From IMG/VR virus record IMGVR_UViG_3300045996_002343, positions 1-53,993 of that record: DNA of 53,993 nt; one strand, given 5' to 3'. Positions 36,330 to 53,993 of the stretch are shown in pieces. Below the pieces are notes generated by a model. The model saw nothing but the letters and a program-made list of their open reading frames with translations. It had not been told where the DNA came from and did no database searches. The stretch is from a virus. Lineage: Duplodnaviria; Caudoviricetes. Made by a program: the position numbers and the translations under genes. The number at the start of each line of letters is the position of its first letter. Position 1 is the first letter of the stretch.

Positions 36330-37101
36330 ATTCGCCCCAGTGTGCGGCATCAACATGATGTGGGAGCTCCTCAACAAGGATCCTCAATACATCGGGGACT
36401 ACCATCTCTGGTTGGCTCATGATGTGTTGAAGGATCCAGAACAGTGGAGGAGGCTCTCACAAGCCATCAGGATGTACTATCCAGAGGCGACTATCATCAT
36501 GGATAATTCCCTGATAGAGCTCGGCGCTCCGATTAGCGGAGAGAACCTAAAGCTCTCTTCGCTTGCAGTGGGCGCGGACTATTTAGTGTTGCCCGACGTC
36601 CTTACGGACATGGACGCCACATTAGATGGATCCCGAGACTTCCTGGCGCGCATGGGTTCTGACCTGGATATCAAAACTCTTGGAGTGATCCAAGGGAAAT
36701 CCATCGGAGAACTCCACCGCTGTGCTTCGGCATTGGTGGGGATGGGATGCTCTGCATTATCGATTCCGAGGATTGTACAGAAGCAGTTCGGGGATCGCAA
36801 AGGAATCGTTCGGGAGATTGCTGGTGCCTTTCCACACATCAAGATCCATCTACTTGGCTTCAGTGACAACCTAGAAGCCGATCGGGAAGCCTGCCGAACC
36901 TCTAGGCATTTCCCGAACGTGATGGGGATCGATTCAGCGGTCCCTATCCGAGTAGGCCAGAAGAACGAGCTCCTCTATGGCTACACAGCCATGAAGGTAG
37001 GATCTCGCGCGGAGGATTACCTTGAGCGCAGCGATCCACCAACCCCCTACACGTTGGTCAATCTCAGAGAGTTCAGGAGATCCATTCAATGCGATGCGTG
37101 A
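36322..37101 (+). CDS. TGT-fold TIM-barrel protein, DpdA-like deazaguanine transglycosylase candidate
   Basis: IIMDNS, LPDV, GVIQG, IHLLG and GIDS occur in the order seen in TGT/DpdA enzymes; sits in the que/folE cluster. Confidence 0.65.
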   Translation: MAKFAPVCGINMMWELLNKDPQYIGDYHLWLAHDVLKDPEQWRRLSQAIRMYYPEATIIMDNSLIELGAPISGENLKLSSLAVGADYLVLPDVLTDMDATLDGSRDFLARMGSDLDIKTLGVIQGKSIGELHRCASALVGMGCSALSIPRIVQKQFGDRKGIVREIAGAFPHIKIHLLGFSDNLEADREACRTSRHFPNVMGIDSAVPIRVGQKNELLYGYTAMKVGSRAEDYLERSDPPTPYTLVNLREFRRSIQCDA

Positions 37102-41663: not shown

Positions 41664-41936
41664 CTAAAGACCTTTAGCTTCTACAGCTAACATGACCTGG
41701 TTTTCGAAGTAGGCATCTTCCTTTGCTCTTAAGCGCTCGGCTTCGTAAGGGGCCCCTTCTGGTGTTTGGTCGAAGGCTCCGTCGAGCATGAAGAAGTCTT
41801 CTGCACAGGTGGCAGAAGTGACCACCAGATCTTCCTGATCTTCATCGATGTCGATTGTCATCCCATACTCAAGGCCGAGTCGGATGACTGCATCTAGGAA
41901 TTGCCTGACTCTTGGTGATTGAGTTGATCTCAACAT
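41664..41936 (-). CDS. Hypothetical early protein
   Basis: ATG overlaps the upstream TGA. Confidence 0.6.
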   Translation of the reverse strand: MLRSTQSPRVRQFLDAVIRLGLEYGMTIDIDEDQEDLVVTSATCAEDFFMLDGAFDQTPEGAPYEAERLRAKEDAYFENQVMLAVEAKGL

Positions 41937-42484
41937 CAGAACACCCATTCTCCTTCATCTGGTTGGGGTTGCGGAGGAGGTTCTGGGATTGGCCTTTCGA
42001 CCTTCGGCCCCTTGATCGTTGCGCTATCATTCTCCAGAGCATCTGATCGGATGCGACAGTTGATAGCCGATATGCAGAACACCTCCGTTTTGTTATCGTA
42101 TGTGACGAACGTTGCGATGTCTCGTGAGGTTCCTTCCCTCTTGCACCTCTGACAGGTTCTCGGACGATTCAGGATCGATGCATACTTCTCACTGGATTCC
42201 AAGGTGGGTTCTGGAAGGATCTGATCGTTGCCGATCCTCTGCAGAACCAACTTGTAGTTCCTTACACAGGCATGCACCGAGGCTTCTAGTCCTAGATTCT
42301 GAATCGCCTTGACGAAGCCACCTCTCTGAGGATACTCACCTTCCTCGACGTAGCCCTCTACTACTACTGCATCCTTACCAGATTCGTAGAAGGCCCTTAC
42401 CAATTCCTGAACCGGCCGTCGAGGCATCCGGGATTTCATCCCCTCGAGGTCGATCTCAGTCTGTGTTGGATCCCTCATCCTCAT
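41936..42484 (-). CDS. Putative DNA-binding protein with C-terminal CxxC/CxxxxxC (paralog of 46099-46365)
   Basis: Shares F..S.K..V and F..AI...GL pattern with the paralog; CQRC...CISAINC. Confidence 0.55.
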   Translation of the reverse strand: MRMRDPTQTEIDLEGMKSRMPRRPVQELVRAFYESGKDAVVVEGYVEEGEYPQRGGFVKAIQNLGLEASVHACVRNYKLVLQRIGNDQILPEPTLESSEKYASILNRPRTCQRCKREGTSRDIATFVTYDNKTEVFCISAINCRIRSDALENDSATIKGPKVERPIPEPPPQPQPDEGEWVF

Positions 42485-42752
42485 CTGTTTGGATTCTCCT
42501 GATGTAACGGCGTAGAGGGTTGATCTTGGATCCTACTGATGTCCGGGCAGTGACCCATAGCTTGTGGTCGTCTACCCAGAACTTGTCTCCCTCTTGGATC
42601 TCCCCTTCGTAGACCCTCTGATATCCTTCCGGAATCTCGGGAGAGTCTTTCTTGTAGTGCCGATCAGCTCCCTGGGGAAAGCTTGCAGCCCTGATAGCTG
42701 CAGCAATCGCTGGAGGGATTTGCTCTTTGGGCGGCTGTTGCTTCTTACTCAT
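42456..42752 (-). CDS. Hypothetical protein (P.GY...G....GD.FW motif)
   Basis: Motif shared with the adjacent ORF. Confidence 0.6.
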   Translation of the reverse strand: MSKKQQPPKEQIPPAIAAAIRAASFPQGADRHYKKDSPEIPEGYQRVYEGEIQEGDKFWVDDHKLWVTARTSVGSKINPLRRYIRRIQTDEDEGSNTD

Positions 42753-43152
42753 CTTTGTGCTCCCAGGATACCTTGATATCCAGCTGGACTCCGTCTCTGG
42801 TGAGAGTGGTTTCGGTTTCGGATACGAGATGCAGTTGACTTGCATCGACAATAGTTCCGCGGTCTTTCCACCCCTTCCCCTTGAGATTGTCGATGATCTC
42901 CTCGAAGGTTTGCCAGACCCTGCTGGGTTCTTTCTTCTTGCGGATCAGGCAGACAAACGTGTTCAAGTGTCCAGGACTTTGAACCCGCTTCCAGCATGTT
43001 CCTGCTGGATACCAGAAGAGATCCCCCATCTCTACGGTTCCTCCCTGGATGTGCTCGTAACCGGGAGGAAGGGTAAGCCAGAGTGGTTTGCTCACCGAGG
43101 TCTTTGGGATCTCTACGACTGCGCACTCTGCCCCTTCGATTGGATCGCTCAT
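42745..43152 (-). CDS. Hypothetical protein (P.GY...G....GD.FW motif)
   Basis: Coupled to neighbours; motif shared with the adjacent ORF. Confidence 0.6.
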   Translation of the reverse strand: MSDPIEGAECAVVEIPKTSVSKPLWLTLPPGYEHIQGGTVEMGDLFWYPAGTCWKRVQSPGHLNTFVCLIRKKKEPSRVWQTFEEIIDNLKGKGWKDRGTIVDASQLHLVSETETTLTRDGVQLDIKVSWEHKDE

Positions 43153-43445
43153 TGCTTGACTGCCTTTCTGAAGATAGTTACCTTCACTTTGCGGACACCC
43201 CACTTGATGGCTCGGTTGTAGGGCATCCTAGCATCGAACTTCCACTTGGGATGGCCGGCCCCCATCAGATCATTGATGGGAGCCTTGCCATAACCAGGGA
43301 TTAGGATCCATTTCCCGATGAGATGCTTCTGGTGCCTGTTGACTGCTACACCCCATAGCCTCCTCGAGCCTGTGTAGCTCTTGTGGCCTTTGAGGCAATA
43401 GGCCGTCACCGTTGCTTGGTGTGTAACTATGGCACTGTTCTCCAT
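43149..43445 (-). CDS. 3D-domain (MltA-like) protein
   Basis: VTAY, GVAV, GKWILIPGYG, ND, FD, A.KWG.RKVKV pattern of 3D domains. Confidence 0.7.
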   Translation of the reverse strand: MENSAIVTHQATVTAYCLKGHKSYTGSRRLWGVAVNRHQKHLIGKWILIPGYGKAPINDLMGAGHPKWKFDARMPYNRAIKWGVRKVKVTIFRKAVKQ

Positions 43446-43675
43446 TCTTCTCCTACTAACTCCTGGATCAACACAGGAGGTGCCTGACTCCATCTCCTAA
43501 CCGGTAGGTCGTCGACGTAGAGAGTGATATGCTGAATGTTGGCCCATCCGTTGACTGTCAGGATATTTACTATCCGATCGTAGTCAGGATAGCCCAGGTT
43601 CTCCGAGAAGCCTCCGAAGTCTACCGACTTGGACTTCTCATCCCGATCGACGAACAACAGGTATGTCTCTTTCAT
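43427..43675 (-). CDS. Hypothetical early protein
   Basis: AAGGA RBS; tight packing. Confidence 0.55.
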   Translation of the reverse strand: MKETYLLFVDRDEKSKSVDFGGFSENLGYPDYDRIVNILTVNGWANIQHITLYVDDLPVRRWSQAPPVLIQELVGEEWRTVP

Positions 43676-43679
43676 CTAA

Positions 43680-44090
43680 CTATCCTTGTTGTGCGACTGA
43701 TCGATCCTCAAGGACCAACTTGACGTTTCGGAGAGCGGGGCACTTGGTGCATCTCTGCCGATCTCCCAGAGAATTGCTGACCCAGTTGTGTTCGCAGGTC
43801 TCCTCACTGTGGTTGTCATCCCATGTTGGAGCGCCCGTTGACTCCTCGGCACCCTCATCTGCAGCCCTTGGCACCTCGACTGTCAACACCTGCTCCATCT
43901 CGATCCTTCTCCGATCCACTGCATGTAAGAGATCGTTGAATTGCTCCAGCGAGAGCCAGATCCCTACTGCACACTCTCCGCTTGAGACCTGAAGGAACGT
44001 TCTATTCTTCTCATGGTCTGAAGGATCTCCTTCGACCTTGATCCTGGCTTTATCATCTTGCCACGGATGGCAGTATATTGTGTTGATCAT
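43680..44090 (-). CDS. Hypothetical protein with C-terminal CxH/CxxC
   Basis: CEHNW...RCTKC; ATG overlaps the upstream stop. Confidence 0.55.
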   Translation of the reverse strand: MINTIYCHPWQDDKARIKVEGDPSDHEKNRTFLQVSSGECAVGIWLSLEQFNDLLHAVDRRRIEMEQVLTVEVPRAADEGAEESTGAPTWDDNHSEETCEHNWVSNSLGDRQRCTKCPALRNVKLVLEDRSVAQQG

Positions 44091-44398
44091 TCTGGATCCT
44101 TTTCTCCCGACGGTTCGGGAAGATCGTTGAGATCGACGGACTCCCCCTCTTTCGAAGGGGAGCCGAAGATTGAATCTACATCCCAGCCACGAGGAGTGAG
44201 GACTTCCATTCCACATTCCCCCTCTGCTGCTACCAGCTCGTCAGCCTTTTCGGTGGCCTCTACCTCTGAGGCTGCTTGGACGTAGCGAGTCCGCTTTGAT
44301 CGTGGGTGTAAGGTGTAGAGTCGAAAGGGCTTGTCGCTGTTCCCTCTCTTTGCCTGCTGCAACTCGAAGTGTTTGTTACCATGTTCCTGTTTCGACAT
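44087..44398 (-). CDS. Hypothetical early protein
   Basis: GGAGG RBS. Confidence 0.55.
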   Translation of the reverse strand: MSKQEHGNKHFELQQAKRGNSDKPFRLYTLHPRSKRTRYVQAASEVEATEKADELVAAEGECGMEVLTPRGWDVDSIFGSPSKEGESVDLNDLPEPSGEKDPE

Positions 44399-44504
44399 AA
44401 TCCTCCATAATGCCATCCACGATGTCGACCATGAAGTTCGCGAACCACCACAGCGCTACCAGGCCCAGGAAGCTAAAGCACGCGGCCGAAAGAAGTTGGT
44501 TCAT
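44376..44504 (-). CDS. Small membrane protein (42 aa, not in ORF track)
   Basis: MNQLLSAACFSFLGLVALWWFANFMVDIVDGIMEDYVETGTW fills the gap between neighbours. Confidence 0.45.
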   Translation of the reverse strand: MNQLLSAACFSFLGLVALWWFANFMVDIVDGIMEDYVETGTW

Positions 44505-44964
44505 CTTCGGTAGATTCCTTCTCGAGAGATGCGACATAGTTGGGGGCATCGGCGATGAGGTAGTCGAGCAGTTCGATGAGATCGTCTCGCCGCTCGCGCA
44601 TGACCGACGTCATTGAATCGTCAGTGATATTGCGGAGTCCTGGCAGACTCCAGTGCTCCTGATTCGGCCTCATGACCCGATGCGAGTTTGCAGCCATTGC
44701 GTATTGACCTGCAAGCATCGCTACCGGCTCTACGTATTCGTATCCTCCCTGACGCATGAGATCGACTGCATTCATGATGGTATGGAGGCATCCTTTAATG
44801 GATTTGGCCTCCTCTTCAGATTCTTTAAACTTCCGCTCGATGTGGTCGGTCTCGTCCTTGATCGTTTGCAGCACCTTCACGATCCCATCGACTGATTGGC
44901 AGGCCTTTCGAGCCGTCAGCATCAGCAGTACCTCGGTCATCATGTTCTCAAAGCTCATCTTCAT
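44473..44964 (-). CDS. Hypothetical helical protein
   Basis: GAGGA RBS before MKMS. Confidence 0.55.
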   Translation of the reverse strand: MKMSFENMMTEVLLMLTARKACQSVDGIVKVLQTIKDETDHIERKFKESEEEAKSIKGCLHTIMNAVDLMRQGGYEYVEPVAMLAGQYAMAANSHRVMRPNQEHWSLPGLRNITDDSMTSVMRERRDDLIELLDYLIADAPNYVASLEKESTEDEPTSFGRVL

Positions 44965-45229
44965 CTTCCTCGAGTTCACCTTCTTGGAACTCCTGAATCG
45001 TGTCTGTTTGGTGTTTGGGAGCTCGGTGTTCGATTCTTGCTCCCTTTGCTTTCTCCGCTTCAACATCGTTGCGGAGACCTATTGAATAGCGCAGGACGTT
45101 ATAAACTTGTTGGTATCGGCACTTCCCTCCGTATTCCTTTTCGATCTGTTCTGCAATGGCAGAGATGCTCATCTTTTCGGCCGCTAGCTCCCGCATCCTA
45201 GCGGCTTTGCTTCCTTGCTCCGAAGCCAC
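44948..45229 (-). CDS. Small HTH-like protein (paralog family)
   Basis: SK...RELAAEKMSISAIA...YQQVYNVL; GGAGG RBS. Confidence 0.65.
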   Translation of the reverse strand: MASEQGSKAARMRELAAEKMSISAIAEQIEKEYGGKCRYQQVYNVLRYSIGLRNDVEAEKAKGARIEHRAPKHQTDTIQEFQEGELEEDEDEL

Positions 45230-45725
45230 GTTTGACCTCCTCCATCATCCGAAGGTAGTTTTCCAGCTCCGGTCTTGAGCTATCTATTTTGGCTTTCTGC
45301 ATCCGCTTCTCGAGATCCAACTTGATTGCTCGGAAGGCAGCAGGATCGTCGTTCCAGCCTTTCTGCAGATCCGCCAGTTGCTTCTCATCTGTAGGCCAGA
45401 TGTAGTTGTCGATAGATGGCATCTCAGCCACGTCACACTTGAAGACATCGACATGCTGGATCATCTTACGGATCTGAAAGCACCTCAGAGTGTTATCGCA
45501 CTTCTTCAGTTGACCGTTGAGCCCCATCTTTGTGGCTGCGAGCATGTTGGTGACTCGATAGATCCGATTCCGATTGGAGTCCCCCTCTCCTGGATCCTCG
45601 CAGAGATATTGCTTCAATCTCTCCAGAGCATCCTTGCAGCTCTTTTCATCTTGGAAGCTCAATCCGATCCGGAGGCATTGCCAGTTGTAGTCGTAGATCA
45701 ACTTCCTCACGACTTGAACCTCCAA
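45198..45725 (-). CDS. Hypothetical early protein
   Basis: 175-aa ORF in the operon. Confidence 0.6.
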   Translation of the reverse strand: MEVQVVRKLIYDYNWQCLRIGLSFQDEKSCKDALERLKQYLCEDPGEGDSNRNRIYRVTNMLAATKMGLNGQLKKCDNTLRCFQIRKMIQHVDVFKCDVAEMPSIDNYIWPTDEKQLADLQKGWNDDPAAFRAIKLDLEKRMQKAKIDSSRPELENYLRMMEEVKRGFGARKQSR

Positions 45726-45799
45726 CTGCAGTAGAGCGCAGTGATCACAGATCCTATCAGAGATCCGATAAAGCCTGCCAGAATGAATTCACTGATCAT
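45707..45799 (-). CDS. Small hydrophobic ORF (30 aa)
   Basis: MISEFILAGFIGSLIGSVITALYCSWRFKS after GGGAG. Confidence 0.4.
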   Translation of the reverse strand: MISEFILAGFIGSLIGSVITALYCSWRFKS

Positions 45800-46106
45800 T
45801 GATCTTCTCCCCAGCTGCTGGAACTTCCAGTGTAGCTAGTGATCGTTTGTCGACCCAGAAGACAAACTTCTCATCTTCGTGGCGGACAGACACTCCCCAT
45901 CCAGCATTCCTGAAATGAATAGCCACGAAGTTGAGTGTCCTTGCACGTGTTCCAGAAGGGAAGATGATCTCCAGTGTCTTCCCTTCGTAGGCTTGCTGCA
46001 AGGTGTTGTTCAATGCATTGATCATCTCGGTTGCATTAAGAACATCCCCTTCCGCAAGATCCATTACCTCTTGAGGCGTTACCGCTCTTGGATAGGTCTT
46101 ACCCAT
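45789..46106 (-). CDS. Hypothetical early protein
   Basis: Overlapping neighbours in the operon. Confidence 0.6.
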   Translation of the reverse strand: MGKTYPRAVTPQEVMDLAEGDVLNATEMINALNNTLQQAYEGKTLEIIFPSGTRARTLNFVAIHFRNAGWGVSVRHEDEKFVFWVDKRSLATLEVPAAGEKINDQ

Positions 46107-46365
46107 TTTCTTCAGCTTCCTCCTTGAACTTGATCAGGTAGAGGTTCAGGCGACGGCGCTTTACCGTCATCTTCTCGGCCAACCCCATCCGATCGATTGC
46201 GTTGCGGAATGCAACGTTGGCCTTGTTGGCTTCAGCAGAATCGTCGAACTCGTAAGCTACCTGCTGCTTATCCGAATCCGCAAACTGCTGAACGTATTCT
46301 ACCCAGAAGCCCATTGGCTTTCGGGCAGTTTCATTTTCCAGCTTCTTATCAGTTTCCTTCAACAT
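46099..46365 (-). CDS. Putative small DNA-binding protein
   Basis: GAGGAG RBS; paralog of the N-terminal part of 41936-42484. Confidence 0.6.
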   Translation of the reverse strand: MLKETDKKLENETARKPMGFWVEYVQQFADSDKQQVAYEFDDSAEANKANVAFRNAIDRMGLAEKMTVKRRRLNLYLIKFKEEAEENG

Positions 46366-46819
46366 TGGATCTCCTCAACTTGCTAGGTCTCCCGACCTTG
46401 CGTCGCATCTCATTCTCTAACCGTTCTTCAGGCTCTGTATCTTCTGAGCCTTCCAGCCTCTCGACGCTGTGTTCGATCAGCCGGATCGCTGCCACCAGAT
46501 CGTTGTTCCAGTTAGTAACTCTCGACCATCTCTTCTCCCTTTTCCCTGTAGGATTCCGAACTTCAATCCAGAACGCTCGTTCCTCTACTGACATGTTATC
46601 GAGGATGCTCAGAAGTTTCATGAGGTATGCAGAATTGAAAGTCCGTTGGACCGTGAACTTCTTGGTTCGCAGATTGTACGTCTCGACTCCGTGATCCGTA
46701 AGGAACTCGTACAGGATCGGATAGGTATCCTCCAGAGCTTCATACTTCAGAGGTTCGTGAGAACCTGCTTCGAAGACATACAGCCGGTAGTGCTTATAGC
46801 GGTTCCTGTTACGTCTCAT
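46349..46819 (-). CDS. Hypothetical protein with basic C-terminal RKVGRP
   Basis: First gene after the promoter at 46872-46901. Confidence 0.6.
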   Translation of the reverse strand: MRRNRNRYKHYRLYVFEAGSHEPLKYEALEDTYPILYEFLTDHGVETYNLRTKKFTVQRTFNSAYLMKLLSILDNMSVEERAFWIEVRNPTGKREKRWSRVTNWNNDLVAAIRLIEHSVERLEGSEDTEPEERLENEMRRKVGRPSKLRRSNVEGN

Positions 46820-46871
46820 CGCATCTTTCTTTCAGGTTCGAATGTTACTTTCTTTTCGATCTATCTATATA

Positions 46872-46901
46872 ATTATATATCAAAACGTGAGGTAAAATCA
46901 A
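46872..46901 (-). promoter_or_regulatory. Sigma70-type promoter
   Basis: TTGATT, 18 bp, TATAAT on the - strand; shares CTTGATTTTACCT with the promoter at ~30080. Confidence 0.75.
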
Positions 46902-46955
46902 GTTCTTACCCGGTACATTTTTTAAGTTATTTTTGATCATTGGCTCCCTGGCATA

Positions 46956-46988
46956 GGCTTCCAGATCCTGGTGGGGAATCTGGAAGCC
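46956..46988 (-). terminator. Hairpin downstream of 47002-47232 (terminator or processing site)
   Basis: GGCTTCCAGAT / ATCTGGAAGCC inverted repeat. Confidence 0.45.
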
Positions 46989-47001
46989 CTGCGCCACCCG
47001 G

Positions 47002-47232
47002 CTACGCAGCCTTGTTGCTGGGGAAGTTCTCTTCATCCCAAATGAGAGACCTCCAAAGTCCCCTTCTTATCTGCTCGACCTCTCCTCTCTTCTTCGCATT
47101 AGTGATAGCAGGACCGCTAGAAGATGGATGAGCATCTACTAGTTCAGTCCTCATAGCCTCGTCGAACTGTGCTCTGGTGAATTCAGGATTCGCCACACAG
47201 AAGTGGTAGAGTAGCTCCTTGACCGTCTTCAT
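47002..47232 (-). CDS. Hypothetical, possible winged-helix protein
   Basis: KKRGEVEQIRRGLW wing-like motif. Confidence 0.55.
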   Translation of the reverse strand: MKTVKELLYHFCVANPEFTRAQFDEAMRTELVDAHPSSSGPAITNAKKRGEVEQIRRGLWRSLIWDEENFPSNKAA

Positions 47233-47616
47233 CTAAGCAGCCTGGGATTCCTGCTTGCTGGCGTACTGCTTATGCTTGGCGTCCATCACTTCATGATCGC
47301 TCGTGGTCAGCTTTCGTGGGTAGACCTGAGCTCCTCCCTTGTGGGTCTTGTTGACCCTGTTAGCTTCCTGTTGCGCGATTGTAATGCTGTTCAGAGCGTT
47401 GTAGTTCCAATGGCGTTCGATCCCTCCCGGCAAGCGGTAGAAGAGGCCATACGCTCGTCCGATTCGGTCGTTGTTGTTCCTATTCATCTTACCCTCCTCG
47501 TTCCTAACCATTGCACACGCAGTTTGCAGGTCGAGCATCACAGTCCCACCTGCTTCATCGACGAGCTGACGCACACGGGCAATCTGCTCCTTGGTGAGAG
47601 GCTGCCTATTCATCAC
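47233..47616 (-). CDS. Hypothetical early protein
   Basis: Abuts both neighbours. Confidence 0.55.
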   Translation of the reverse strand: MMNRQPLTKEQIARVRQLVDEAGGTVMLDLQTACAMVRNEEGKMNRNNNDRIGRAYGLFYRLPGGIERHWNYNALNSITIAQQEANRVNKTHKGGAQVYPRKLTTSDHEVMDAKHKQYASKQESQAA

Positions 47617-47902
47617 CTTCCTCGCTGAGATCCATCACTCCGTAGAGATGATAGACCAACCAGCCAAGTTGTGCTGTTCCGAAGTAGAACTCCTCATCTG
47701 TCGGTTCGAAAGGCTGTCCTGTGAACCTCAAGAACCAACTCGAGATTTCTCCCTCTCCCTCCAGATCATGTTCGATCCAGAGAACCAGTTGATTCCCCTG
47801 GGCAGCGAACGCTCTTGCCAATCCGAATCCTGGATACTTGATCTCCTGGACCTCATCGATCTTGTCGGGATCCAGAACGTATTTGTAGATGACGCGCTTC
47901 AT
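47606..47902 (-). CDS. Hypothetical phage protein
   Basis: MKRVIYKY..TGQP..Y.GT....LVYHLY, a pattern familiar from small phage proteins. Confidence 0.6.
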   Translation of the reverse strand: MKRVIYKYVLDPDKIDEVQEIKYPGFGLARAFAAQGNQLVLWIEHDLEGEGEISSWFLRFTGQPFEPTDEEFYFGTAQLGWLVYHLYGVMDLSEEGDE

Positions 47903-47903
47903 G

Positions 47904-48149
47904 TTAACGGCTTCCTCTCGGCTCCCCTTGCTCTTCAATGATCTCGACCTTGGCTATGTGGCAGTACCACATCAGTTGAAATTCGTAGAGGCTCTTCTTA
48001 ACCTCACGAGCCTGTTCTAGGGTCTCCCTCTCGATAAGGTACTCCAGATCATTGATCTGCACCCCTTTCCTCTGTTGAATGTACCACTCCAGTGCACTGC
48101 TCGGAGTGTTCATTGGACTGAACACCAGCATGTAGGTAACTTTAGGCAT
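47904..48149 (-). CDS. Hypothetical early protein
   Basis: AGGAG RBS. Confidence 0.55.
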   Translation of the reverse strand: MPKVTYMLVFSPMNTPSSALEWYIQQRKGVQINDLEYLIERETLEQAREVKKSLYEFQLMWYCHIAKVEIIEEQGEPRGSR

Positions 48150-48155
48150 CTGCTC

Positions 48156-48419
48156 CTACTCCCCTTTCAATTGCATCCGGATCTCGTAGATCTCCTCTTC
48201 AGAGATCACGACCCCTTCGCACAGCATAGCTGAACTCACCAGTTCAGCTATGGCGTCGGCTATCGATAGGGCTGTTTCGTCTTCCCATCCGAACCGTTGT
48301 GCCACTCCGAAGCGTGCCTGCTCCATCAGCCGAATGGCTTCCAGAACCGCTTCCTTCTGGCGTGCTGGTGACTGATCGTCGCTTGGCTTCACATAGAGCT
48401 CGTCGTTCTGCTCGCTCAT
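48156..48419 (-). CDS. Hypothetical acidic protein
   Basis: First gene after the promoter at 48475-48512. Confidence 0.6.
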   Translation of the reverse strand: MSEQNDELYVKPSDDQSPARQKEAVLEAIRLMEQARFGVAQRFGWEDETALSIADAIAELVSSAMLCEGVVISEEEIYEIRMQLKGE

Positions 48420-48474
48420 CGTTCATGTTGCTCCTGTCGTATATAGATGAAGCGCCTTTCGCTCTATCTATATA

Positions 48475-48512
48475 ATTATATAACAAATCTCAAGGCCCGA
48501 CAAACTCTTTGG
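48475..48512 (-). promoter_or_regulatory. Early promoter, CCAAAGAGTT-N22-TATAAT
   Basis: Same box and spacing at 50288-50325 and 51698-51735. Confidence 0.75.
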
Positions 48513-48534
48513 CCCTAAGTATTTTTTACCTCCC

Positions 48535-48984
48535 CTACTGGATCCCATGAATGTCCTGGTACGCTGAGATTGCATAGTCGCGCAACTCCAGAGGATCCAG
48601 TAAGTCGAGATCACCATCATACCATTCACACGCGATGAGATACTGGTACATAAGACGTTGAGTCTCTTCGTCGTAGGGATCCATCGTTCCATTGTTGAAC
48701 TGGTCGTATGCGACCTCCATCGCCCCTTCGACGAATTGGTTCAGGGCATCCCACATCTGCTGCTCGTCGAAGTATCCACCAGGGATCATGAACATCCTGC
48801 CCACGACTTCGTGCATCTCCTCAGGCGTTGGAACCAAATGGAATCCGAACTCCTTCTCTCCCATGAAGTTGATGCCCAAACTGAGTACAGGTTGATCAGT
48901 CACTTCGTCATCCATCTTCCGGTAGAAATTGTGCACGAAGTAAGAATCTACGAACAACGCCTGAATTGGCTTCACATCTTCCAT
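48535..48984 (-). CDS. Acidic hypothetical protein (paralog of 50372-50803)
   Basis: Shared M.M.PGG..D motif. Start moved to MEDVK. Confidence 0.6.
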   Translation of the reverse strand: MEDVKPIQALFVDSYFVHNFYRKMDDEVTDQPVLSLGINFMGEKEFGFHLVPTPEEMHEVVGRMFMIPGGYFDEQQMWDALNQFVEGAMEVAYDQFNNGTMDPYDEETQRLMYQYLIACEWYDGDLDLLDPLELRDYAISAYQDIHGIQ

Positions 48985-49049
48985 GACTTCCCATCCTTTC
49001 AGGGGGCAGAGGGAACCCGCATCTCGACGTACGGGCTCCCTTGATTGCT

Positions 49050-49520
49050 CTACTGGCTGAACTCCCAATCTTCCTTGAACTGCTCTCGTCCTGTGATCCC
49101 CATGATCACCTCTCGTAGGTATCGCGCCCCGATCTGTTGGATCCAGAAGCATGCACTCTCGCGAGCTTCCTTCTCATCTGTCATGTTGTCTTCTTCTTCG
49201 TCGAAGACTTCCTTCATAGACTGGACGATGTCGAGATCCCATCCCTCTAACTCATTGGGGTACCTGACTTGTGCCAGCTCCCGTGCATCCTTGTAGATCT
49301 CGGCGATCCTGGTATCTTCGAGTTCCTCCAGTTCGAAGAGAATCACTTGGTACAGGTGATCCTGAATTTGATCGGCTGTGGCGTCTGTGTAGAAGTGGTG
49401 AGGACTCGGGATGTTAGCCTCTCTCGAAGCAAAGTCCAGCGTCTGCTCGTGCGCCAGCGGTTGAACCCTCAACGCGGCCTGAAGAAATGTGTAGATCAAA
49501 GTTCCCGGTGTTGTGCTCAT
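49050..49520 (-). CDS. Acidic hypothetical protein
   Basis: 156 aa, Asp/Glu-rich. Confidence 0.6.
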   Translation of the reverse strand: MSTTPGTLIYTFLQAALRVQPLAHEQTLDFASREANIPSPHHFYTDATADQIQDHLYQVILFELEELEDTRIAEIYKDARELAQVRYPNELEGWDLDIVQSMKEVFDEEEDNMTDEKEARESACFWIQQIGARYLREVIMGITGREQFKEDWEFSQ

Positions 49521-49586
49521 AACGGTTCTCGTTCTTCCTGTTGTGTGGGGAGCCTAGATCTCTCCAGGCTCCCTTGATGCCTTGCT

Positions 49587-49850
49587 CTACTTGTTGCGCA
49601 GAGCGTTGATCTCTTTCATGAGCTCTTCTGTTTCCAGAACTCCGTAGGTATCCGGATCGGTCCTGAAGCAGAAGGGATCTTCTTCGTGGGAGTTGATCAT
49701 CTCAACGAAGATAGCTTCCCGCTCATCGGAAGTCAGATCTTCACTAAGAATGATCTCTAGTTCTCCCTTCTCGCTGATGTAGTACGTTCCCACTTTACGG
49801 CCACCCATCTTGATGGCTCCCATTGTCAGGTCGTGGAATGTCACTCGCAT
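49587..49850 (-). CDS. Hypothetical early protein
   Basis: AAGGAG RBS. Confidence 0.6.
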   Translation of the reverse strand: MRVTFHDLTMGAIKMGGRKVGTYYISEKGELEIILSEDLTSDEREAIFVEMINSHEEDPFCFRTDPDTYGVLETEELMKEINALRNK

Positions 49851-49854
49851 CCAA

Positions 49855-50223
49855 TTACTCCTTGCTCTCAGAGGCCACCTTATCGAAGACGCCCTTGCGC
49901 TTCAGTGTGTTGTAGACCATCTGATACTTGACGTCCCAGCCATAGAGCTCCTTGAGCTTCTTGGGGATCTCGTTAACTGGGATGTCTTCGTTCCACAGCT
50001 CCATGATCGCCGAGCTCTTGCTTTTCTCACCGTCAGGAGTCGCTTTGTTGATCGTGGCTCCTTTCGCCTTCAACGTAGAGTAGACTGCCTGATATGAGGT
50101 TCCTGTCGCTTCGGCAATCTGGGCGACTGTCTTCCCCTCGGCATTGAGCTCCAGGTATCGTGAGGTGTTCGTTACGCCCTCGGCGTTTCGTGCTGCTCGC
50201 TCGGACAGATTGGACCTTCTCAT
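49855..50223 (-). CDS. Tandem HTH protein (paralog family)
   Basis: EGKTVAQIAEATGTSYQAVYSTL and SKSSAIMELW...YQMVYNTL. Confidence 0.75.
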   Translation of the reverse strand: MRRSNLSERAARNAEGVTNTSRYLELNAEGKTVAQIAEATGTSYQAVYSTLKAKGATINKATPDGEKSKSSAIMELWNEDIPVNEIPKKLKELYGWDVKYQMVYNTLKRKGVFDKVASESKE

Positions 50224-50287
50224 CGTTCTTCTCTTCTTTCCAGGCTTCATGAGCCTTATGCTAGAGAGCATTTGTGCTCTCTATATA

Positions 50288-50325
50288 ATTATATTTCAGA
50301 TCTCTTCGCCCAACTAACTCTTTGG
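50288..50325 (-). promoter_or_regulatory. Early promoter, CCAAAGAGTT-N22-TATAAT
   Basis: Repeated box with an A/T tract upstream. Confidence 0.75.
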
Positions 50326-50371
50326 CCCTTATTTATTTTTATTTCTTTATCAGGGCCTCCGAGCTTGTAAA

Positions 50372-50803
50372 CTACCCCTTCTTGTAGAGCATCTCTGCCT
50401 GCTGAACTACTTCCTCTTCCGAGAGGCTATCCAGATGACGCGTCCATCCCACCTTGGAGATGATGTACTGCTTCGCCCATGCGCTCAGATGTTTCACCTG
50501 GATCTGGTTCCCGTAGACATCTTTGACCCTCCCGACATGAATGGCGATCGGCTCTGCTGCCCATCCGTTCATTTCAGACAGGATGTAGGATGGATCCTGG
50601 CAGCCTCCAGGGACCATCAGCATGGCGCTGCAGATATCCTCCAGCTCCTGATCGTTGAGAGGGGCATACCAGTCGTAGTAGCAGTCGCCTGATGCGCAGA
50701 GGGTTATTGTCAGGAGTTCTTCTCGGCCGCTCGCTGGTTCCTCTCCTTCATAAGCCTTCCAGAACGTAAAGCTACTGCGGGCATCGAATCCTACTGAGTT
50801 CAT
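50372..50803 (-). CDS. Hypothetical protein (paralog of 48535-48984)
   Basis: MLMVPGGCQD vs MFMIPGGYFD. Confidence 0.6.
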   Translation of the reverse strand: MNSVGFDARSSFTFWKAYEGEEPASGREELLTITLCASGDCYYDWYAPLNDQELEDICSAMLMVPGGCQDPSYILSEMNGWAAEPIAIHVGRVKDVYGNQIQVKHLSAWAKQYIISKVGWTRHLDSLSEEEVVQQAEMLYKKG

Positions 50804-50895
50804 CTTATTCTCATCCTTCCTGTTGTCATTGGGATGCGTTGCGACTACATCGCTTCATTGCTTCTTTACTTAGGGCTCTTAATTAACTCGCGCGA

Positions 50896-51294
50896 CTACC
50901 AGGTTTCGTAGTTGTCCATGTTGCGCTTATCTCCCAAAGCGTGCGCGAGGATCCACTTCGCGACACTGCAATGTGTATGGGAGATCCGATCCTTCTCGTC
51001 CGCACCTTCCTCTTCGGGAGCATCTTCCTCCTCTGCTCGTTTACGCGCCCACGTCTCGATTGTCCAGATATTCACCTCTCTCGGTTCGCTCATGTACCAC
51101 AGCGCAGCCAGATGGTACGCGATTGATGTGGCCTCGTAGTCACTCTCAGGACCTTCAACTCCGACGTCGCTCGACATCGTCATGTATGTGTCCGCCTGCT
51201 GAAGTTCGACGTAGTCTTCTGTGAACCCATTAGCGACTGGATCGATCGAACGTGCTGTGTTGACCATCTCTTCGAAGGTTTCTGGTGCTTTCAT
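50896..51294 (-). CDS. Acidic hypothetical protein
   Basis: AAAGGT RBS; abuts the upstream gene. Confidence 0.6.
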   Translation of the reverse strand: MKAPETFEEMVNTARSIDPVANGFTEDYVELQQADTYMTMSSDVGVEGPESDYEATSIAYHLAALWYMSEPREVNIWTIETWARKRAEEEDAPEEEGADEKDRISHTHCSVAKWILAHALGDKRNMDNYETW

Positions 51295-51295
51295 G

Positions 51296-51640
51296 TTACT
51301 TACCTTTCAGGAATTCGGAGGAGATCTGGATCCCCTCGAAGTTATTCGCCACGAGCCTCAGATCGTGTTTGTACTCATCCATGATCTTGACCAACTCGTT
51401 GTCCTCTCCGAACTGTCGGACTAGGATGTCTCGCGCGTTCTGGAGCCTACACAGTACTTCCATTACTGCGTTCTCGTCACTCACCTCCTCCTTGGTGACC
51501 GTTACTTCTCGACCCTTTCGAAGTTCTTCCTGCTCGAGGTACTCTGCCTCCTCCTTGTTATCGGTGTTCGTGGTCTTTGACAACCAATCCACCTTCTCGT
51601 GAGGTCGTGGTTTCGCTGTTACGCTGTAGATGTAGTTCAT
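51296..51640 (-). CDS. Hypothetical early protein
   Basis: GAGGA RBS; first gene after the promoter at 51698-51735. Confidence 0.65.
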   Translation of the reverse strand: MNYIYSVTAKPRPHEKVDWLSKTTNTDNKEEAEYLEQEELRKGREVTVTKEEVSDENAVMEVLCRLQNARDILVRQFGEDNELVKIMDEYKHDLRLVANNFEGIQISSEFLKGK

Positions 51641-51735: not shown

Positions 51736-52647
51736 TACGTTAAAATTTTTTAACACAACAGCTCGCCAAATCTCTGGCTCTTGCTCCCGGTTTTTCGCGC
51801 AGAACCAATCTCATCAGACATCACTGGAGATAGCTTGCGGGGCTTCCGTACAAGGAATGGGAAGCTACTTCATAGAGGTGGATTAGGAAGGCTAGGCTCG
51901 TCCACATTGACTGGGAAGCCTAATCCCCATTTTGCTATGAGGGCAGGTATGCCGGAACTCCGAGAGGGTACGAAGGTACGGATCTTCCCTATAGCGCTAA
52001 TAGAAATCGTTACTAATACTATTAAGGCTCGCTAGAGGGGCTGGGCTGATGGCTATAGAGAACCGTTATTGTTAGTGGAGGCCCTTTAGCTACAGCAACA
52101 CACACCGAAGATCACTTTGCGCCTGCCGGAGATACTGTAGGTTTGGTGTGCCTAGAAGTACGGATATCACCCTTGGGAGGGGAGAAACAGACCGACCGCG
52201 GCCTCAAAGGCGCCATTGCGTTCTATACGTACCCCACCCGCCTCACTTCCGCTAGTGGTGGGCTCCTCTACTGAAAGGGCGGCCCGAAAGCCCTCTGGCC
52301 CCTTCGCCCTCTAGGCTGCCGGCGCCAATTCCCGATTTACCCGCGCGCCTAAGCGCCCGTGGTCGCCGGAAAGGCCGATTTACCCGTGGACGCAGTGGGT
52401 GGTAAGCTCATGGCGTCTGAGGGTGGGGCCCTGAATCCGTTGAAAATCTGAAAATAGGGGCCTGGCAACATTTGGCGGCCTCTCCGGATTGCCTGAGGAG
52501 AGGCTGAAGTGGAGATATGGAGTTCTGATGGAGTTTTGACTCCCTGGAGTTAGAGAGGCGTCGACACCTCCTATTGTAGCGTGGCGTCACATCTCCAGCC
52601 GCGCACCCGGCCGCGAATAACACGGCTTTTATCCGTGACCTGAAATC

Positions 52648-52999
52648 CGCGAAGCGATTCCCGCGTGAGCGACCTTGTTCGGACTACTCCACAGGAGACC
52701 TTGTTTGGAGGGGGTGGGGGATGATGGGGGTTGGGGGCAACTGGGGGAGGGGGAAAATACCCGCGGAGCGATAACGTGCGAAGCACACCAATGCACGAAG
52801 TGCAGCCGTCGGCACGACATGGAGCACGGCGCAGCGAAACGAAGTGGAGAGTGTCTGCGAAGCCGAATAACGGGGCGATGCGAACCCCGACAAAAATCCG
52901 CGAAGCGAAAATCGATAACCGCGTAGCGACAGCAGCCGATCAAATAACGCCGAAGGCGACATACAGGAACGAAGTGACTGCCACCAGGCCCGCGGAGCG
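52648..52999 (+). other. Array of GNA-triloop DNA mini-hairpins
   Basis: cgcGAAgcg (52648, 52899), cgcGGAgcg (52762, 52991), gtgcGAAgcac (52776), tgcacGAAgtgca (52792), gtcgGCAcgac (52808), cgcGTAgcg (52920), cgccGAAggcg (52948), plus shorter ones. Confidence 0.7.
52710..52753 (+). other. G-quadruplex-forming motif (six G5 runs)
   Basis: GGGGG-T-GGGGG-ATGAT-GGGGG-TT-GGGGG-CAACT-GGGGG-A-GGGGG. Confidence 0.7.
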
Positions 53000-53098
53000 A
53001 AAAACCTACAGCCTATCACCCTCTACAGCGTGGTAGCCGACAAAAATGTAAGCAGACCGACAATGTCAGCCTACCTACATTCTATCACACCCTACCTT

Positions 53099-53224
53099 TC
53101 ATCCTCCCTTCCATTTATCAAACCTCTTACCCCTCTCACCAATCCACCACACTTTCACCTTTACCACTTTCTTAACCACCACTTCACTTCCCCACCACTT
53201 CACACTCTTAATCTTCACACTCAT
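53099..53224 (-). CDS. 41-aa basic Val/Lys/Trp-rich ORF, cytosine-free
   Basis: MSVKIKSVKWWGSEVVVKKVVKVKVWWIGERGKRFDKWKGG with AGGA upstream. Confidence 0.45.
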   Translation of the reverse strand: MSVKIKSVKWWGSEVVVKKVVKVKVWWIGERGKRFDKWKGG

Positions 53225-53296
53225 ACTATCCTAACCTTTCTCCCACCCACCACCCATAAACACTACCTACCTTACAAACCAACCCTCACCTCTATC

Positions 53297-53500
53297 CTAT
53301 TTCTCCTTTCTCTTAATCTCCCCTATCCTCACCAAATTATTATACACCATATTATAACTCACCTCTAACCCTCTCTTATTCATCTCATCCCTTATCTCAC
53401 TAATACTCATATCCTTATCCCACAACTCCTTCATCACACTCACCTTACTAACACCCTTTACCACCTTACCATCCACCAACTCACTTTTTCTCACACTCAT
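53297..53500 (-). CDS. 67-aa HTH-like protein encoded without cytosine
   Basis: AAGGAG-N7-ATG at 53500; SKVSVMKELWDKDMSISEI...YNMVYNNL aligns with the paralogs at 49855 and 44948. Confidence 0.8.
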   Translation of the reverse strand: MSVRKSELVDGKVVKGVSKVSVMKELWDKDMSISEIRDEMNKRGLEVSYNMVYNNLVRIGEIKRKEK

Positions 53501-53538
53501 CTCATATCTCCTTAACTTCAACACTACCCTACACTCAT

Positions 53539-53567
53539 ATAATACCACAACCTATACACCTATACAA
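53539..53567 (-). promoter_or_regulatory. Sigma70-type promoter of the C-free unit
   Basis: TTGTAT, 17 bp, TATTAT with extended -10 TG; A/T-rich upstream. Confidence 0.7.
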
Positions 53568-53685
53568 CCTTTTCAAATAAAAACTTCCCTAATTCTTTTC
53601 TTCATATTTCCAAATGCCATTCTGCAATACACCCGACTACTAACAATCCCATACACCTAACACTCCACCTCATACTAACCTCTCC

Positions 53686-53850
53686 GCATATCATACCCTC
53701 TCCACCGCATACTACCTCTTCACACTCTATCCTCTGCATATCATACTCTACCTACCGCATACTACCTCTACATAATCTCTACAATAACTCAACATCTCTT
53801 CTCCCCATAATCTCTACAATATCTCAACATCCTATCGCCAACTCTCAACA
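53686..53850. repeat. G-poor tandem repeats
   Basis: GCATATCATAC (53686, 53736) and ACCGCATACTACCTCT (53704, 53754) with 50-bp period; CATAATCTCTACAATA (53771, 53806) with 35-bp period. Confidence 0.8.
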
Positions 53851-53866
53851 TTCACGCAACATAATA

Positions 53867-53993
53867 CCTAAAATCACTCTATATTATTATTTGACGTGAC
53901 ACAACTGATGAACAGAAGTTATGTAGACGGCGAATAATAATATACGAGCTGATTTTACGGTATTAACTGAGGGTGGGAGAGACTGTACCCGGC
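53867..53993. repeat. Terminal direct repeat, copy 2
   Basis: Identical to 1-127. Confidence 0.9.

Follow-up and report, generated by a model that had tools for sequence, protein, structure and literature searches.

Near one end of the window, by which we mean the whole 53,993-base stretch of phage DNA analysed here, lies a tract without a single G on its plus strand, and on it sit a putative minus-strand promoter, a ribosome-binding site, a gene for a small helix-turn-helix (HTH) protein, a second small open reading frame (ORF) and the beginning of a terminator-like hairpin (Table 1). A scan of the window placed the longest plus-strand G-free run, of 546 bases, exactly on this tract, as the earlier note had claimed, and its minus strand has no C over the same 546 bases. 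The runners-up among plus-strand G-free runs (79, 50 and 36 bases) all adjoin the tract, at 53636-53892. Away from the tract and its neighbourhood, plus-strand G-free runs in the window reach about 33 bases at most, the longest expected run being about 32 at the window's G fraction of 0.26, and runs free of any one base do not exceed 47 away from the tract and the adjacent zone. The probability of a 546-base run is about 1e-71 for a single start and about 1e-66 across all starts, strands and bases. In a background of 39 loci (some 515 kb, including overlaps), the longest single-base-free run was 102 bases, in a contig of 29% G+C. An 86-base C-free run in locus L006 was considered as a second case and rejected, as it is a simple 10-base tandem repeat.

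Table 1. Positions of the features discussed in the text, with their basis or a descriptive remark.
Feature	Position	Strand	Basis or remark
G-free tract (plus strand), C-free (minus strand)	53070-53615		Base-run scan, composition, matching X1 and X2 contigs
Promoter-like site	53539-53567	-	TTGTAT (53567-53562), 17-base spacer, TG, TATTAT (53544-53539); read by eye
Shine-Dalgarno AAGGAG	53508-53513	-	Seven bases 5' of ATG at 53500
67-aa HTH gene, no C in codons	53297-53500	-	ORF call, paralog match, orthologues P0002 and P0004
41-aa Lys/Val/Trp-rich C-free ORF, probable small gene	53099-53224	-	Same frame as HTH gene
Intrinsic-terminator-like hairpin	53042-53079	-	Core 53079-53047, then five U at 53046-53042
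G-poor upstream zone	53616-53892		9 G in 277 bases (plus strand)
Mini-hairpin array, T-poor on plus strand	52600-53069	-	Directly downstream of unit
138-aa two-repeat HTH paralog	49855-50271	-	Ordinary composition, coding-strand C 0.24
queC	32841-33551	+	QueC, 8e-51 (Pfam/PHROG)
queD	33552-33986	+	PTPS, 2e-34
queE	33760-34686	+	Radical_SAM at cut-off; PHROG QueE-like, 4e-30
folE	34686-35273	+	GTP_cyclohydroI, 8e-46
Candidate DpdA-like transglycosylase	36322-37101	+	Between que genes and family A DNA polymerase (PolA)

The plus strand of the tract is composed of C (40%), T (32%) and A (28%). On the sense strand G therefore makes up 40% of the bases, compared with 28.5% in the other minus-strand genes, which indicates that the G+C content of the tract was kept and not dropped; the GC skew is 1.0 over the 546 bases, and 72% of the sense-strand bases are purines. 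This strand has 15 runs of at least three G, densest past the HTH stop codon, and the tract contains no canonical four-run G-quadruplex motif. All 17 of its palindromes (16 of four bases and one of six) consist of A and T only; since palindromes with G or C are impossible on a strand without G, this is a logical consequence of composition and not evidence of purpose.

Read from the minus strand, the promoter-like site matches at three of six bases in its -35 hexamer and at five of six in its -10 hexamer, which has an extended -10 TG, and an UP-like A/T-rich stretch lies upstream of it, to about 53592. A promoter-like sequence is present where the earlier note proposed a promoter and is the top minus-strand candidate across 53480-53993 in a relaxed scan, but a stricter scan omits it because only three bases of the -35 hexamer match. 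The proposed ribosome-binding site was found in place. Downstream of the ORFs, a G+C-rich hairpin immediately followed by a U run is a predicted intrinsic terminator, with a predicted fold of -31 kcal/mol for 53091-53032; a scan with a terminator tool missed it and gave three other sites farther downstream. The 3' part of the tract forms the 5' arm of this hairpin, and the first C of the minus-strand RNA (53069) lies in that arm beside the loop, after both stop codons. From a predicted start near 53532 the predicted RNA is C-free for 463 bases, and the C-free stretch extends a further 83 bases upstream, across the promoter and the UP-like DNA. The earlier idea of an mRNA without C consequently holds for both ORFs but not for the whole RNA, because the terminator needs C. 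Predicted minimum free energies were -17 kcal/mol over 466 C-free bases and -127 kcal/mol over the next 361.

The match of the 67-aa HTH protein to a paralog elsewhere in the window (E 7e-10) indicates that its gene is real, and an open frame of at least 84 codons has a probability of 0.002-0.004 in C-free shuffles. Other starts are conceivable: initiation at an in-frame GTG (53548) would lengthen the protein to 83 aa, and in the public gene call it has 75 aa. The protein has no Ala, Pro, Thr, Gln or His, as had been reported from the sequence, and the reported alignment with the paralog was reproduced, including YNMVYNNL in the tract and YQMVYNTL in the paralog. Among the 19 residues identical between the two, the paralog uses C-containing codons at 13 and the tract copy at none, which argues for selection on the alphabet and not on the protein. 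Transversions and two-step codon changes (TCG to AGT or CGC to AGG, for example) are numerous between the two copies, and positions with Gln and Thr in the paralog have become Asn or Met in the tract copy, not stops or Ile. Conversion by deamination or a bisulfite-like process was considered and discarded on these grounds and because C was mostly exchanged for G.

An orthologue of the HTH protein, P0004, is 57% identical to it (E 3e-7 library-wide). Residues whose codons require C number 11 of 66 in P0004, 4 of 68 in a second orthologue (P0002) and 6 of 55 in the C-terminal part of the paralog. The earlier note had held that orthologues of normal C content would speak against its proposal, and P0004 goes part of the way in that direction, as it suggests that C-free coding is specific to a lineage and not a trait of the family. 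We regard the low figure for P0002 as weak grounds for a graded trend, since the domain family is low anyway, as in the paralog. The best Pfam matches of the tract protein score 13.7-14.7 bits, all under their cut-offs, and the paralog scores 22.0 bits against HTH_23 (cut-off 24.6), while P0004 scores 24.6 bits, the cut-off itself, and 22.4 bits against HTH_7; a relation of the tract protein to HTH_23/HTH_7 thus comes from homology to P0004, which reaches the threshold, and not from its own score. The motif VSYN-VYN-LVR-GEI is invariant in the three aligned sequences and spans the recognition helix.

The 41-aa C-free ORF described in the earlier note was recovered and is probably a real small gene, as judged from its sequence in a diverged relative found in a further run (X4, see below), in which three of five changed codons are synonymous and the frame is still open. 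It too has no Ala, Pro, Thr, Gln or His, and family searches with the 41-aa protein gave no match. Neither this protein nor the HTH protein resembles known anti-restriction or DNA-entry proteins. In a crude set of 76 ORFs from the window, coding-strand C has a mean of 0.237 and is at least 0.18 in 73; the exceptions are the two tract ORFs and a 45-aa ORF (53602-53739, C 0.043) that sits in the adjacent C-poor zone. Within this set, the C-free composition affects only the one unit.

Two soil runs from separate studies (X1 and X2) yielded contigs that match the tract without a difference and span both of its edges, those of X2 leaving a gap at about 53097-53291. A run from a third study (X4) contains the diverged relative, in which the differences within the tract are confined to A, C and T: none of the 10 substitutions among those listed is to G, and the 80 displayed letters of its unalignable flank contain no G. 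An assembly, sequencing or spike-in artefact, for which nothing speaks beyond the oddity itself, is extremely improbable in view of these contigs and this natural variant, and of the fact that a gene in the tract has a homologue at another place in this genome. Together with the paralog comparison, in which 13 of the 19 shared residues are recoded synonymously, the G-free relative also upholds the earlier view that the constraint acts on the nucleotide alphabet and that the tract is not low-complexity junk. A further run (X3), labelled RNA-Seq and flagged as probably DNA, has no more than 53687-53985 and some short pieces, and among the runs listed as matching the window there was no RNA dataset carrying the tract.

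Searches for kin place the evidence within one lineage. No nucleotide relative of the tract was found by blastn in 50,697 phage records, the HTH protein and two neighbouring proteins had no match in IMG/VR, nor had the HTH protein one in JGI metagenomes, and an alignment of three HTH sequences found no match in IMG/VR or GTDB genomes. A word-based protein search returned the window's own HTH protein only. A 19-mer of the window is absent from IMG/VR and a 24-mer from IMG/VR and genomes; six metagenome matches to the 19-mer were rejected as chance matches without blastn similarity. A terminase at 23-42% identity is common to 19 IMG/VR loci, of which five completed records (G001-G005) have no single-base-free run longer than 72, no QueC and no match to the HTH protein, and are therefore uninformative on co-occurrence.

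Both flanks of the tract are unusual. Upstream, the G-poor zone contains direct repeats of 50 and 35 bases, and a TATGCRG motif that recurs on the minus strand accounts for four of its nine G; the start of the G-depleted zone is adjoined by an 18-bp inverted repeat (53880-53944). Downstream, the array contains nine perfect 3-bp stems with GNA triloops where 0.56 would be expected, a 16-fold enrichment, three further minus-strand terminator-like sites (52962-52897) and a block of G runs on the plus strand (52700-52756). Folds of 51760-52700 were no better than shuffles on either strand (z -0.5 and -0.2). Searches found no Rfam family at gathering score and no tRNAs, the sole sub-threshold Rfam match being a plant microRNA family (E 0.14). 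The tract sits at the point where gene orientation and cumulative GC skew switch, and the small and large terminase subunits, TerS and TerL, follow across the circular junction. A 127-bp terminal repeat of the window resembles an assembler overlap, and TerL, at most 35% identical to that of any cultured phage, is too distant to indicate the packaging type.

Matches in Pfam and PHROG bear out a four-gene preQ0 pathway (folE, queD, queE and queC) in this phage; QueC occurs in 335 of the 50,697 phage records. The DpdA named in the earlier note is less certain, as the candidate is 33% identical (E 2e-30) to a syntenic ORF of Brevundimonas phage StAshley, its structural neighbours in the Atlas (TM 0.82) belong to a cluster with 17% of members assigned to PF23859 DpdA, and it matches NCBIfam DpdA at 25.1 bits, but this is far under the cut-off of 200 and Pfam TGT had no match in the genome, although the control matched in 14 of 14 genomes; its identity as DpdA is weakly supported. 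Since there is no amidotransferase gene among the ORFs scanned, dPreQ0 would be the expected base. The phage also encodes a family A polymerase (PolA) and a DUF3854 primase-like protein. In two cultured que phages, StAshley (whole genome) and BSTP12 (50,000 of 55,418 bases), no single-base-free run exceeds 51. According to the available text of a published study, the preQ0 pathway protects DNA from restriction, polymerases are not inhibited by 7-deazaguanines, and the share of G that is modified in comparable phages is only about 28-32% (Hutinet 2019, PMC6884629).

Taken together, we consider it very probable that the tract belongs to a real, self-contained minus-strand transcription unit, which begins with the UP-like promoter region, includes a regulator gene of HTH_23 type and the 41-aa ORF and reaches into the 5' arm of its own terminator, and that selection keeps its sense strand C-free and its template strand G-free. 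As to why, we tentatively favour, at a probability of roughly 0.3, a constraint that acts on the DNA duplex and not on the RNA, the unit being an early module without G/C palindromes at the leading end of the genome. Confining G to one strand and C to its complement would retain about 40% G+C while making G:C palindromes, and likewise recognition sites that need G and C on the same strand, impossible. The G-depleted zone of about 820 bp (53070-53892) would be the leading end of the packaged genome at entry into the cell, placed just upstream of the terminase genes over the circular junction, and would have to survive host restriction and methylation and to express two small proteins before the rest is safe; the hairpin array and the G-run block just inside the zone may mark the end of this first segment.

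A constraint on the DNA is favoured because the non-transcribed promoter and UP-like DNA is C-free and the next 277 bases contain only 9 C. The boundaries also fit, with the inverted repeat at one edge and at the other the terminator, for which G:C pairs are indispensable, followed by the hairpin array and the terminase genes, and so does the investment of this phage in a preQ0 pathway known to protect DNA from restriction. Against it, site avoidance alone would not demand that G be wholly absent, sites made of G, A and T only are still possible on the minus strand, and TGCA palindromes arise from the nine G in the zone upstream; sequence-level protection moreover seems redundant if virion DNA is already modified, and the two small proteins are, by sequence, unlike known anti-restriction or DNA-entry proteins. 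The restriction-site-free strand suggested in the earlier note fits the boundaries best of its three options but hinges on assumed genome ends.

A broader reading, possible but doubtful in our judgement, is that an immediate-early operon has been rewritten at the level of the alphabet as an immunity device that dispenses with the rC:dG pair altogether; its expression could then no longer be stopped by whatever works through this pair, be it CTP depletion, ddhCTP-type terminators, C-directed RNases or damage or modification of template G in the phage's own 7-deazaguanine DNA. ddhCTP is a chain-terminating C analogue made by viperin, and MazF-type endoribonucleases cut at ACA. An RNA-level reading, in which both ORFs can be transcribed without CTP and would resist CTP shortage, ddhCTP and endoribonucleases with C in their sites, accounts for the 463 C-free bases, the position of the first C past both stops, the absolute absence of C at synonymous and non-coding sites and the restriction to one unit. 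It is nevertheless unlikely, as it predicts neither the C-free promoter and UP-like DNA nor the C-poor 277 bases upstream, which the C-free mRNA option of the earlier note also leaves unexplained, while the genome shows no viperin or CTP link and the HTH protein and 41-aa peptide are not obvious counter-defences. A template-level reading, in which host RNA polymerase reads the incoming immediate-early unit without meeting a modified base or lesion, appears improbable to us as well. The G-free template, which includes that of the promoter and has its 3' edge at the terminator, does coincide with a preQ0 pathway (QueC being rare) and a DpdA-like gene; but that gene is weakly identified, all other genes have ordinary template G, including 23 further ORFs of the crude set in the early minus-strand block (41936-51640), and StAshley and BSTP12 have no comparable run. 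Modification of the duplex is not avoided either, the non-template strand being G-rich, including the TTG of the -35 hexamer, and together with the modest and non-inhibiting modification described in the available text of PMC6884629 these points weaken the G-free-template option that the earlier note had put forward.

The skew of 1.0, the purine-rich sense strand with its G runs past the HTH stop and the location at the switch of gene orientation and cumulative skew could also be those of a transcription-primed replication origin, at which an R-loop of purine-rich RNA on the pyrimidine-rich template primes the family A polymerase, and the phage has both PolA and a primase-like protein. We think this quite unlikely, because ribosomes translating the two ORFs would counteract an R-loop, such a structure requires neither complete loss of C nor a promoter without C, the tract has no canonical quadruplex motif and a strong predicted terminator would stop the transcript at about 490 bases. 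Rho prefers C-rich RNA loading sites, which an RNA lacking C does not provide, and such an RNA is also incapable of G-C pairing; the weak predicted folding of the C-free RNA relative to the RNA that follows would suit an mRNA that avoids both termination by Rho and attack by RNase III and is fully accessible to ribosomes; in a variant, the antisense RNA, which over 546 bases has the composition of a Rho utilisation site (40% C and 0% G, on composition only), would block rightward read-through to the late genes. Either version is very unlikely, as such effects are graded, so that a few C should be tolerated, the C-free promoter is left unexplained and the other early genes have no such bias. 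Strand-specific loss of C without benefit, for instance by non-template deamination or an editing enzyme, would agree with the strand-specific pattern in a region that is probably highly transcribed. This is most improbable, as relative to other minus-strand genes the lost C was replaced mainly by G (+0.11) and less by T (+0.085), transversions and two-step codon changes are many, the edges are sharp, and the ORFs, ribosome-binding site and promoter are intact; the genome has no reverse transcriptase, which also disposes of a diversity-generating retroelement.

The recoding and the diverged relative indicate that the constraint is selective, and, if so, a natural protein-coding operon, promoter included, is held in a three-letter alphabet and selection can target whether a nucleotide is present at all. 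This would hint at an undescribed pressure on phages, be it that the entering DNA end must generally evade restriction and methylation or that defences acting through one base pair must be escaped, and would make the first minutes of infection testable by simple recoding, besides supplying a natural C-less cassette. If the immunity-device reading were true, this would rank as the first natural gene demonstrated to keep to a three-letter code for function. Full-text searches of the literature listed no natural gene or transcription unit free of one base.

A DNA-level constraint at the leading end invites comparison with systems already known. Phage T5 has a first-step-transfer region without EcoRI sites followed by a stop region rich in repeats and hairpins, and the leading 850 bp or so of T7 hold early promoters. 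The likeness would lie in a short end segment with strong host-type promoters and small early genes that lacks sites before protection is in place, and when restriction-site lack was tested as such a leading-end trait, the tract had no G/C-containing palindrome at all. In T5 and T7, however, particular sites are avoided with all four bases in use, whereas one base is excluded altogether from a strand of the tract. Phage genomes also avoid palindromes and restriction sites, and ACA-less mRNAs resist MazF; these share synonymous recoding against host nucleases but concern short words, genome-wide or by design, and not a whole letter in one short unit. Phages such as CAjan and Rosebush modify their DNA with 7-deazaguanine by means of a preQ0 pathway plus DpdA, and in the present phage folE, queD, queE and queC cluster by a candidate DpdA-like gene and PolA; but the available text of PMC6884629 reports no G-free strand, and the DpdA candidate here is far under the family cut-off.

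In form, the tract has parallels among man-made sequences. The G-less and C-less cassettes devised for transcription in vitro are also a few hundred bases long, and as their transcript lacks one nucleotide, transcription proceeds without that NTP and halts where it first occurs. These cassettes are synthetic and non-coding, while the tract occurs in nature, codes for a protein with homologues and persists in a diverged relative. Strand asymmetry in which the G-rich strand has little or no C is also found under Szybalski's rule, the purine loading of mRNA-synonymous strands, and in telomeres with their G-strand and C-strand repeats. Purine loading is a mild genome-wide bias and telomeres are simple repeats, whereas the tract is complex, coding and absolute over 546 bases.

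The earlier note had reported 546 consecutive bases without G on the plus strand; this run spans exactly 53070 to 53615 and is the longest in the 53,993-base window. The next three G-free plus-strand runs (79, 50, and 36 bases) lie immediately to its right, and at all other window positions runs lacking any one base reach at most 47. At 26% G the longest G-free run expected is about 32 bases, and the probability of 546 is about 1e-66 over all starts, strands, and bases. On the plus strand the tract has 40% C, 32% T, and 28% A, and just nine G occur in the next 277 bases on the right (53616-53892), giving a G-depleted zone of about 820 bases. As an IMG/VR virus record the window is complete, and its first 127 bases recur at its end; most simply, this would be an overlap left by the assembler on a genome that is circular or terminally redundant.

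Features of the C-free minus-strand unit and of the surrounding genome
Feature	Position	Strand	Basis or remark
UP-like A/T-rich stretch	upstream of promoter-like site	-	sequence
Promoter-like site (TTGTAT, 17 bases, TG + TATTAT)	53567-53539	-	top candidate in 53480-53993, relaxed scan
AAGGAG, seven bases 5' of ATG at 53500		-	sequence
67-aa ORF (HTH gene)	ATG 53500, ends 53297	-	open frame and homology
41-aa ORF, frame shared with 67-aa ORF	53224-53099	-	
Predicted terminator-like hairpin, then five U	core 53079-53047; U 53046-53042	-	fold -31 kcal/mol
TerS, TerL, portal, protease, capsid	within ~960-41,600	+	
Replication block: DUF3854 primase-like protein, SNF2, PD-(D/E)XK nuclease, AAA_24, ThyX, PolA with UDG-like domain		+	
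queC, queD, queE, folE	32841-35273	+	
259-aa ORF between que genes and PolA	36322-37101	+	DpdA-like candidate
Family-less ORFs	41936-51640	-	no family match

The promoter-like site was not among the results of a stricter promoter scan, nor was the hairpin among those of a terminator scan. The first minus-strand C after the 546 bases, at 53069, lies in the 5' arm of this hairpin beside the loop. From a predicted start near 53532, 463 RNA bases would be C-free, with the first C lying beyond the ends of both ORFs. No G-C pairs are possible in such an RNA; over 466 bases it is predicted to fold at -17 kcal/mol, no better than shuffles, against -127 kcal/mol for the next 361 bases.

Sequence words from the stretch are present in five public runs from five studies, four of which were covered by contig comparison. 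The artefact that would have undone the claim was not borne out, as contigs of X1 (a soil run of 2021, possibly the source sample of the window) and X2 (soil, 2025, a separate study) equal the window and bridge both tract edges. A diverged relative in X4, a run from a third soil study, shows 11 differences over 126 aligned bases (53103-53228) and 4 over 152 (53298-53449); all 10 itemised in-tract differences exchange A, C, and T only, the other 5 of the 15 not being itemised. Its flanks, no longer alignable at 80%, have no G in the 80 letters shown, and outside the tract it shows changes to and from G. The case for a C-free unit is that of one lineage. Contigs of X1 and X2 both break at 53096 and near 53290, X2 having no contig between, and the region of the 41-aa ORF (53097-53291) could represent a cassette that varies between co-occurring strains.

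An open frame of at least 84 codons arises in 0.2 to 0.4% of C-free shuffles of the tract, stop codons surviving such shuffling because all three contain no C. The proposed paralogy and C-avoiding swaps are both upheld: the HTH protein matches the C-terminal repeat of a 138-aa two-repeat paralog of ordinary composition (49855-50271, minus strand) with 43% identity over 44 residues (E 7e-10), and at the 19 identical residues C occurs in 13 paralog codons and in no tract codon (for example, AGC to AGT, CTG to TTG, CGC to AGG, and GTC to GTG). The paralog also uses C in 12 of its codons at the 24 residues that differ. Judged from the open frame and these alignments, the HTH gene is real and recoded. 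The changes itemised in the X4 relative are one synonymous and Leu45Met in this gene, and three synonymous and two conservative in the 41-aa ORF, whose frame is still open there, a pattern that lends this small ORF weak support as a gene.

A phmmer search, exhaustive over 1.84 billion representatives, returned six proteins at E <=0.001, namely, the window's own, the small orthologues P0002 (54% identical) and P0004 (57%), whose contigs measure 2,059 and 11,447 bases, and three long proteins built from repeats of the HTH-gene domain. P0004 scores exactly at the Pfam HTH_23 cut-off, and the window protein falls below every Pfam cut-off. Residues requiring C (Ala, Pro, Thr, Gln, and His) number 0 of 67 in the window protein, as claimed, but 4 of 68 in P0002 and 11 of 66 in P0004, so the comparison indicates that C-free coding is a derived state of the window lineage and not a trait of the HTH family.

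Plus-strand genes span about 960 to 41,600. Coding-strand C is 0.20 to 0.25 in all minus-strand ORFs of 41936-51640 and 0.00 in the two tract ORFs. The approximately 3.2 kb between the two gene blocks holds few plausible genes and contains the tract unit; counted across the junction, the unit lies about 1.6 kb upstream of terS. PolA (37089-39521), of DNA polymerase family A, bears an N-terminal UDG-superfamily domain (E 3e-18), and the 259-aa ORF preceding it would probably be DpdA-like. Here, as in Brevundimonas phage StAshley (L038 6975-7775, annotated as hypothetical), a family of about 260 aa lies between queE and PolA; it looks like a very divergent DpdA. The nearest cultured phages are distant (PolA 33% and QueC 42% identical to StAshley; TerL <=35% to anything). 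In StAshley (whole genome) and Bacillus phage BSTP12 (50,000 of 55,418 bases), both que-bearing, single-base-free runs reach at most 51, so in this small sample of two the G-free unit is no general companion of que genes. A full-text literature search, its results surveyed in outline, found no natural gene or transcription unit excluding one base; the nearest known likenesses are synthetic G-less cassettes, restriction-site avoidance, purine loading, and telomeric repeats.

Any explanation has to account for the total absence of C, synonymous and non-coding sites included; for a composition kept where sequence diverged, with its 3' edge inside the terminator; for a C-free non-transcribed promoter on the 5' side with a further 277 C-poor bases; for a G-enriched sense strand; for the confinement of the pattern to one unit; and for the que genes. 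Loss by deamination was rejected, as G is the main replacement for the lost C, and transversions or two-step changes make up many of the codon differences. We tentatively favor a constraint on the DNA itself (probability about 0.3), which matches the whole 820-base zone. Placing G and C on opposite strands is the only means of retaining about 40% G+C yet ruling out both G:C-containing palindromes of every kind and any site needing both bases on one strand. In lambda-like phages packaging runs rightward from near terS; if it did so here, the zone, whose start adjoins an 18-bp inverted repeat, would be packaged last and enter first. The first-step-transfer DNA of T5, which lacks EcoRI sites, and the leading 850 bp of T7 are precedents. 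More speculatively, the nine-hairpin array and G-run block beside the unit might mark the end of such a segment.

Two readings based on avoidance of a base pair appear unlikely, and equally so. An RNA independent of one nucleotide would not need CTP, would be immune to ddhCTP, and would offer no C-containing RNase sites; other RNA-level ideas invoke an absence of Rho loading or of structure. All of these fit the 3' edge well but predict neither the C-free promoter nor the C-poor zone upstream. A template free of modified G for the polymerase to read would agree with the que genes, but template G is at ordinary levels in all the other genes, the duplex overall is not depleted of G, and, according to Hutinet et al. 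2019 (PMC6884629), 7-deazaguanines do not inhibit polymerases. The same paper puts the share of G that is modified at about 28 to 32% in phages carrying these genes (PMC6884629). An explanation of another kind, as yet not thought of, is hardly more probable than either.

Beside the unit, 52600-53070 (plus strand, only about 10% T) contains nine perfect 3-bp stems with GNA triloops versus 0.56 expected. GCGAAGC, as DNA an unusually stable mini-hairpin, has four of its seven genomic copies in this array. Several of the mini-hairpins precede U runs on the minus strand and look like tandem terminators. The same CCGCGGAGCGA-type motif occurs in loose ends of the relative in another run, X3. Six runs of five G occupy 52700-52756 (plus strand, 60% G), which holds the sole canonical G-quadruplex motif on that strand of the genome; as minus-strand RNA this block is C-rich and G-poor, directly after the terminators. 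The 0.9 kb at 55 to 60% G+C between the minus-strand gene block and the unit (51780-52640) has no Rfam match, lacks a convincing ORF, and folds no better than shuffles.

Within the G-poor zone, 53665-53831 carries direct repeats (two of 50 bases and two of 35), and four of the nine G fall in a repeated minus-strand TATGCRG motif that may represent operator sites; 53677-53775 is replaced in the X4 relative by 97 unalignable letters. Promoter-like sites on both strands overlap the A/T-rich inverted repeat at the outer edge (53880-53944, 29-base spacer), a candidate for a role in packaging or control. G and C are strand-segregated at a second place, 235-423 upstream of terS, where a C-rich stretch (235-345) precedes one with G runs and no C (377-423), with inverted A/T-rich repeats after that. 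In L006, a distant terminase-sharing contig, a 10-base TGTAGGTTGA unit occurs seven times in tandem at the contig end (1-86), about 3 kb upstream of terminase, followed by many copies of a ATGACATTTGTGTCAT-type palindrome, and both repeats look iteron-like.
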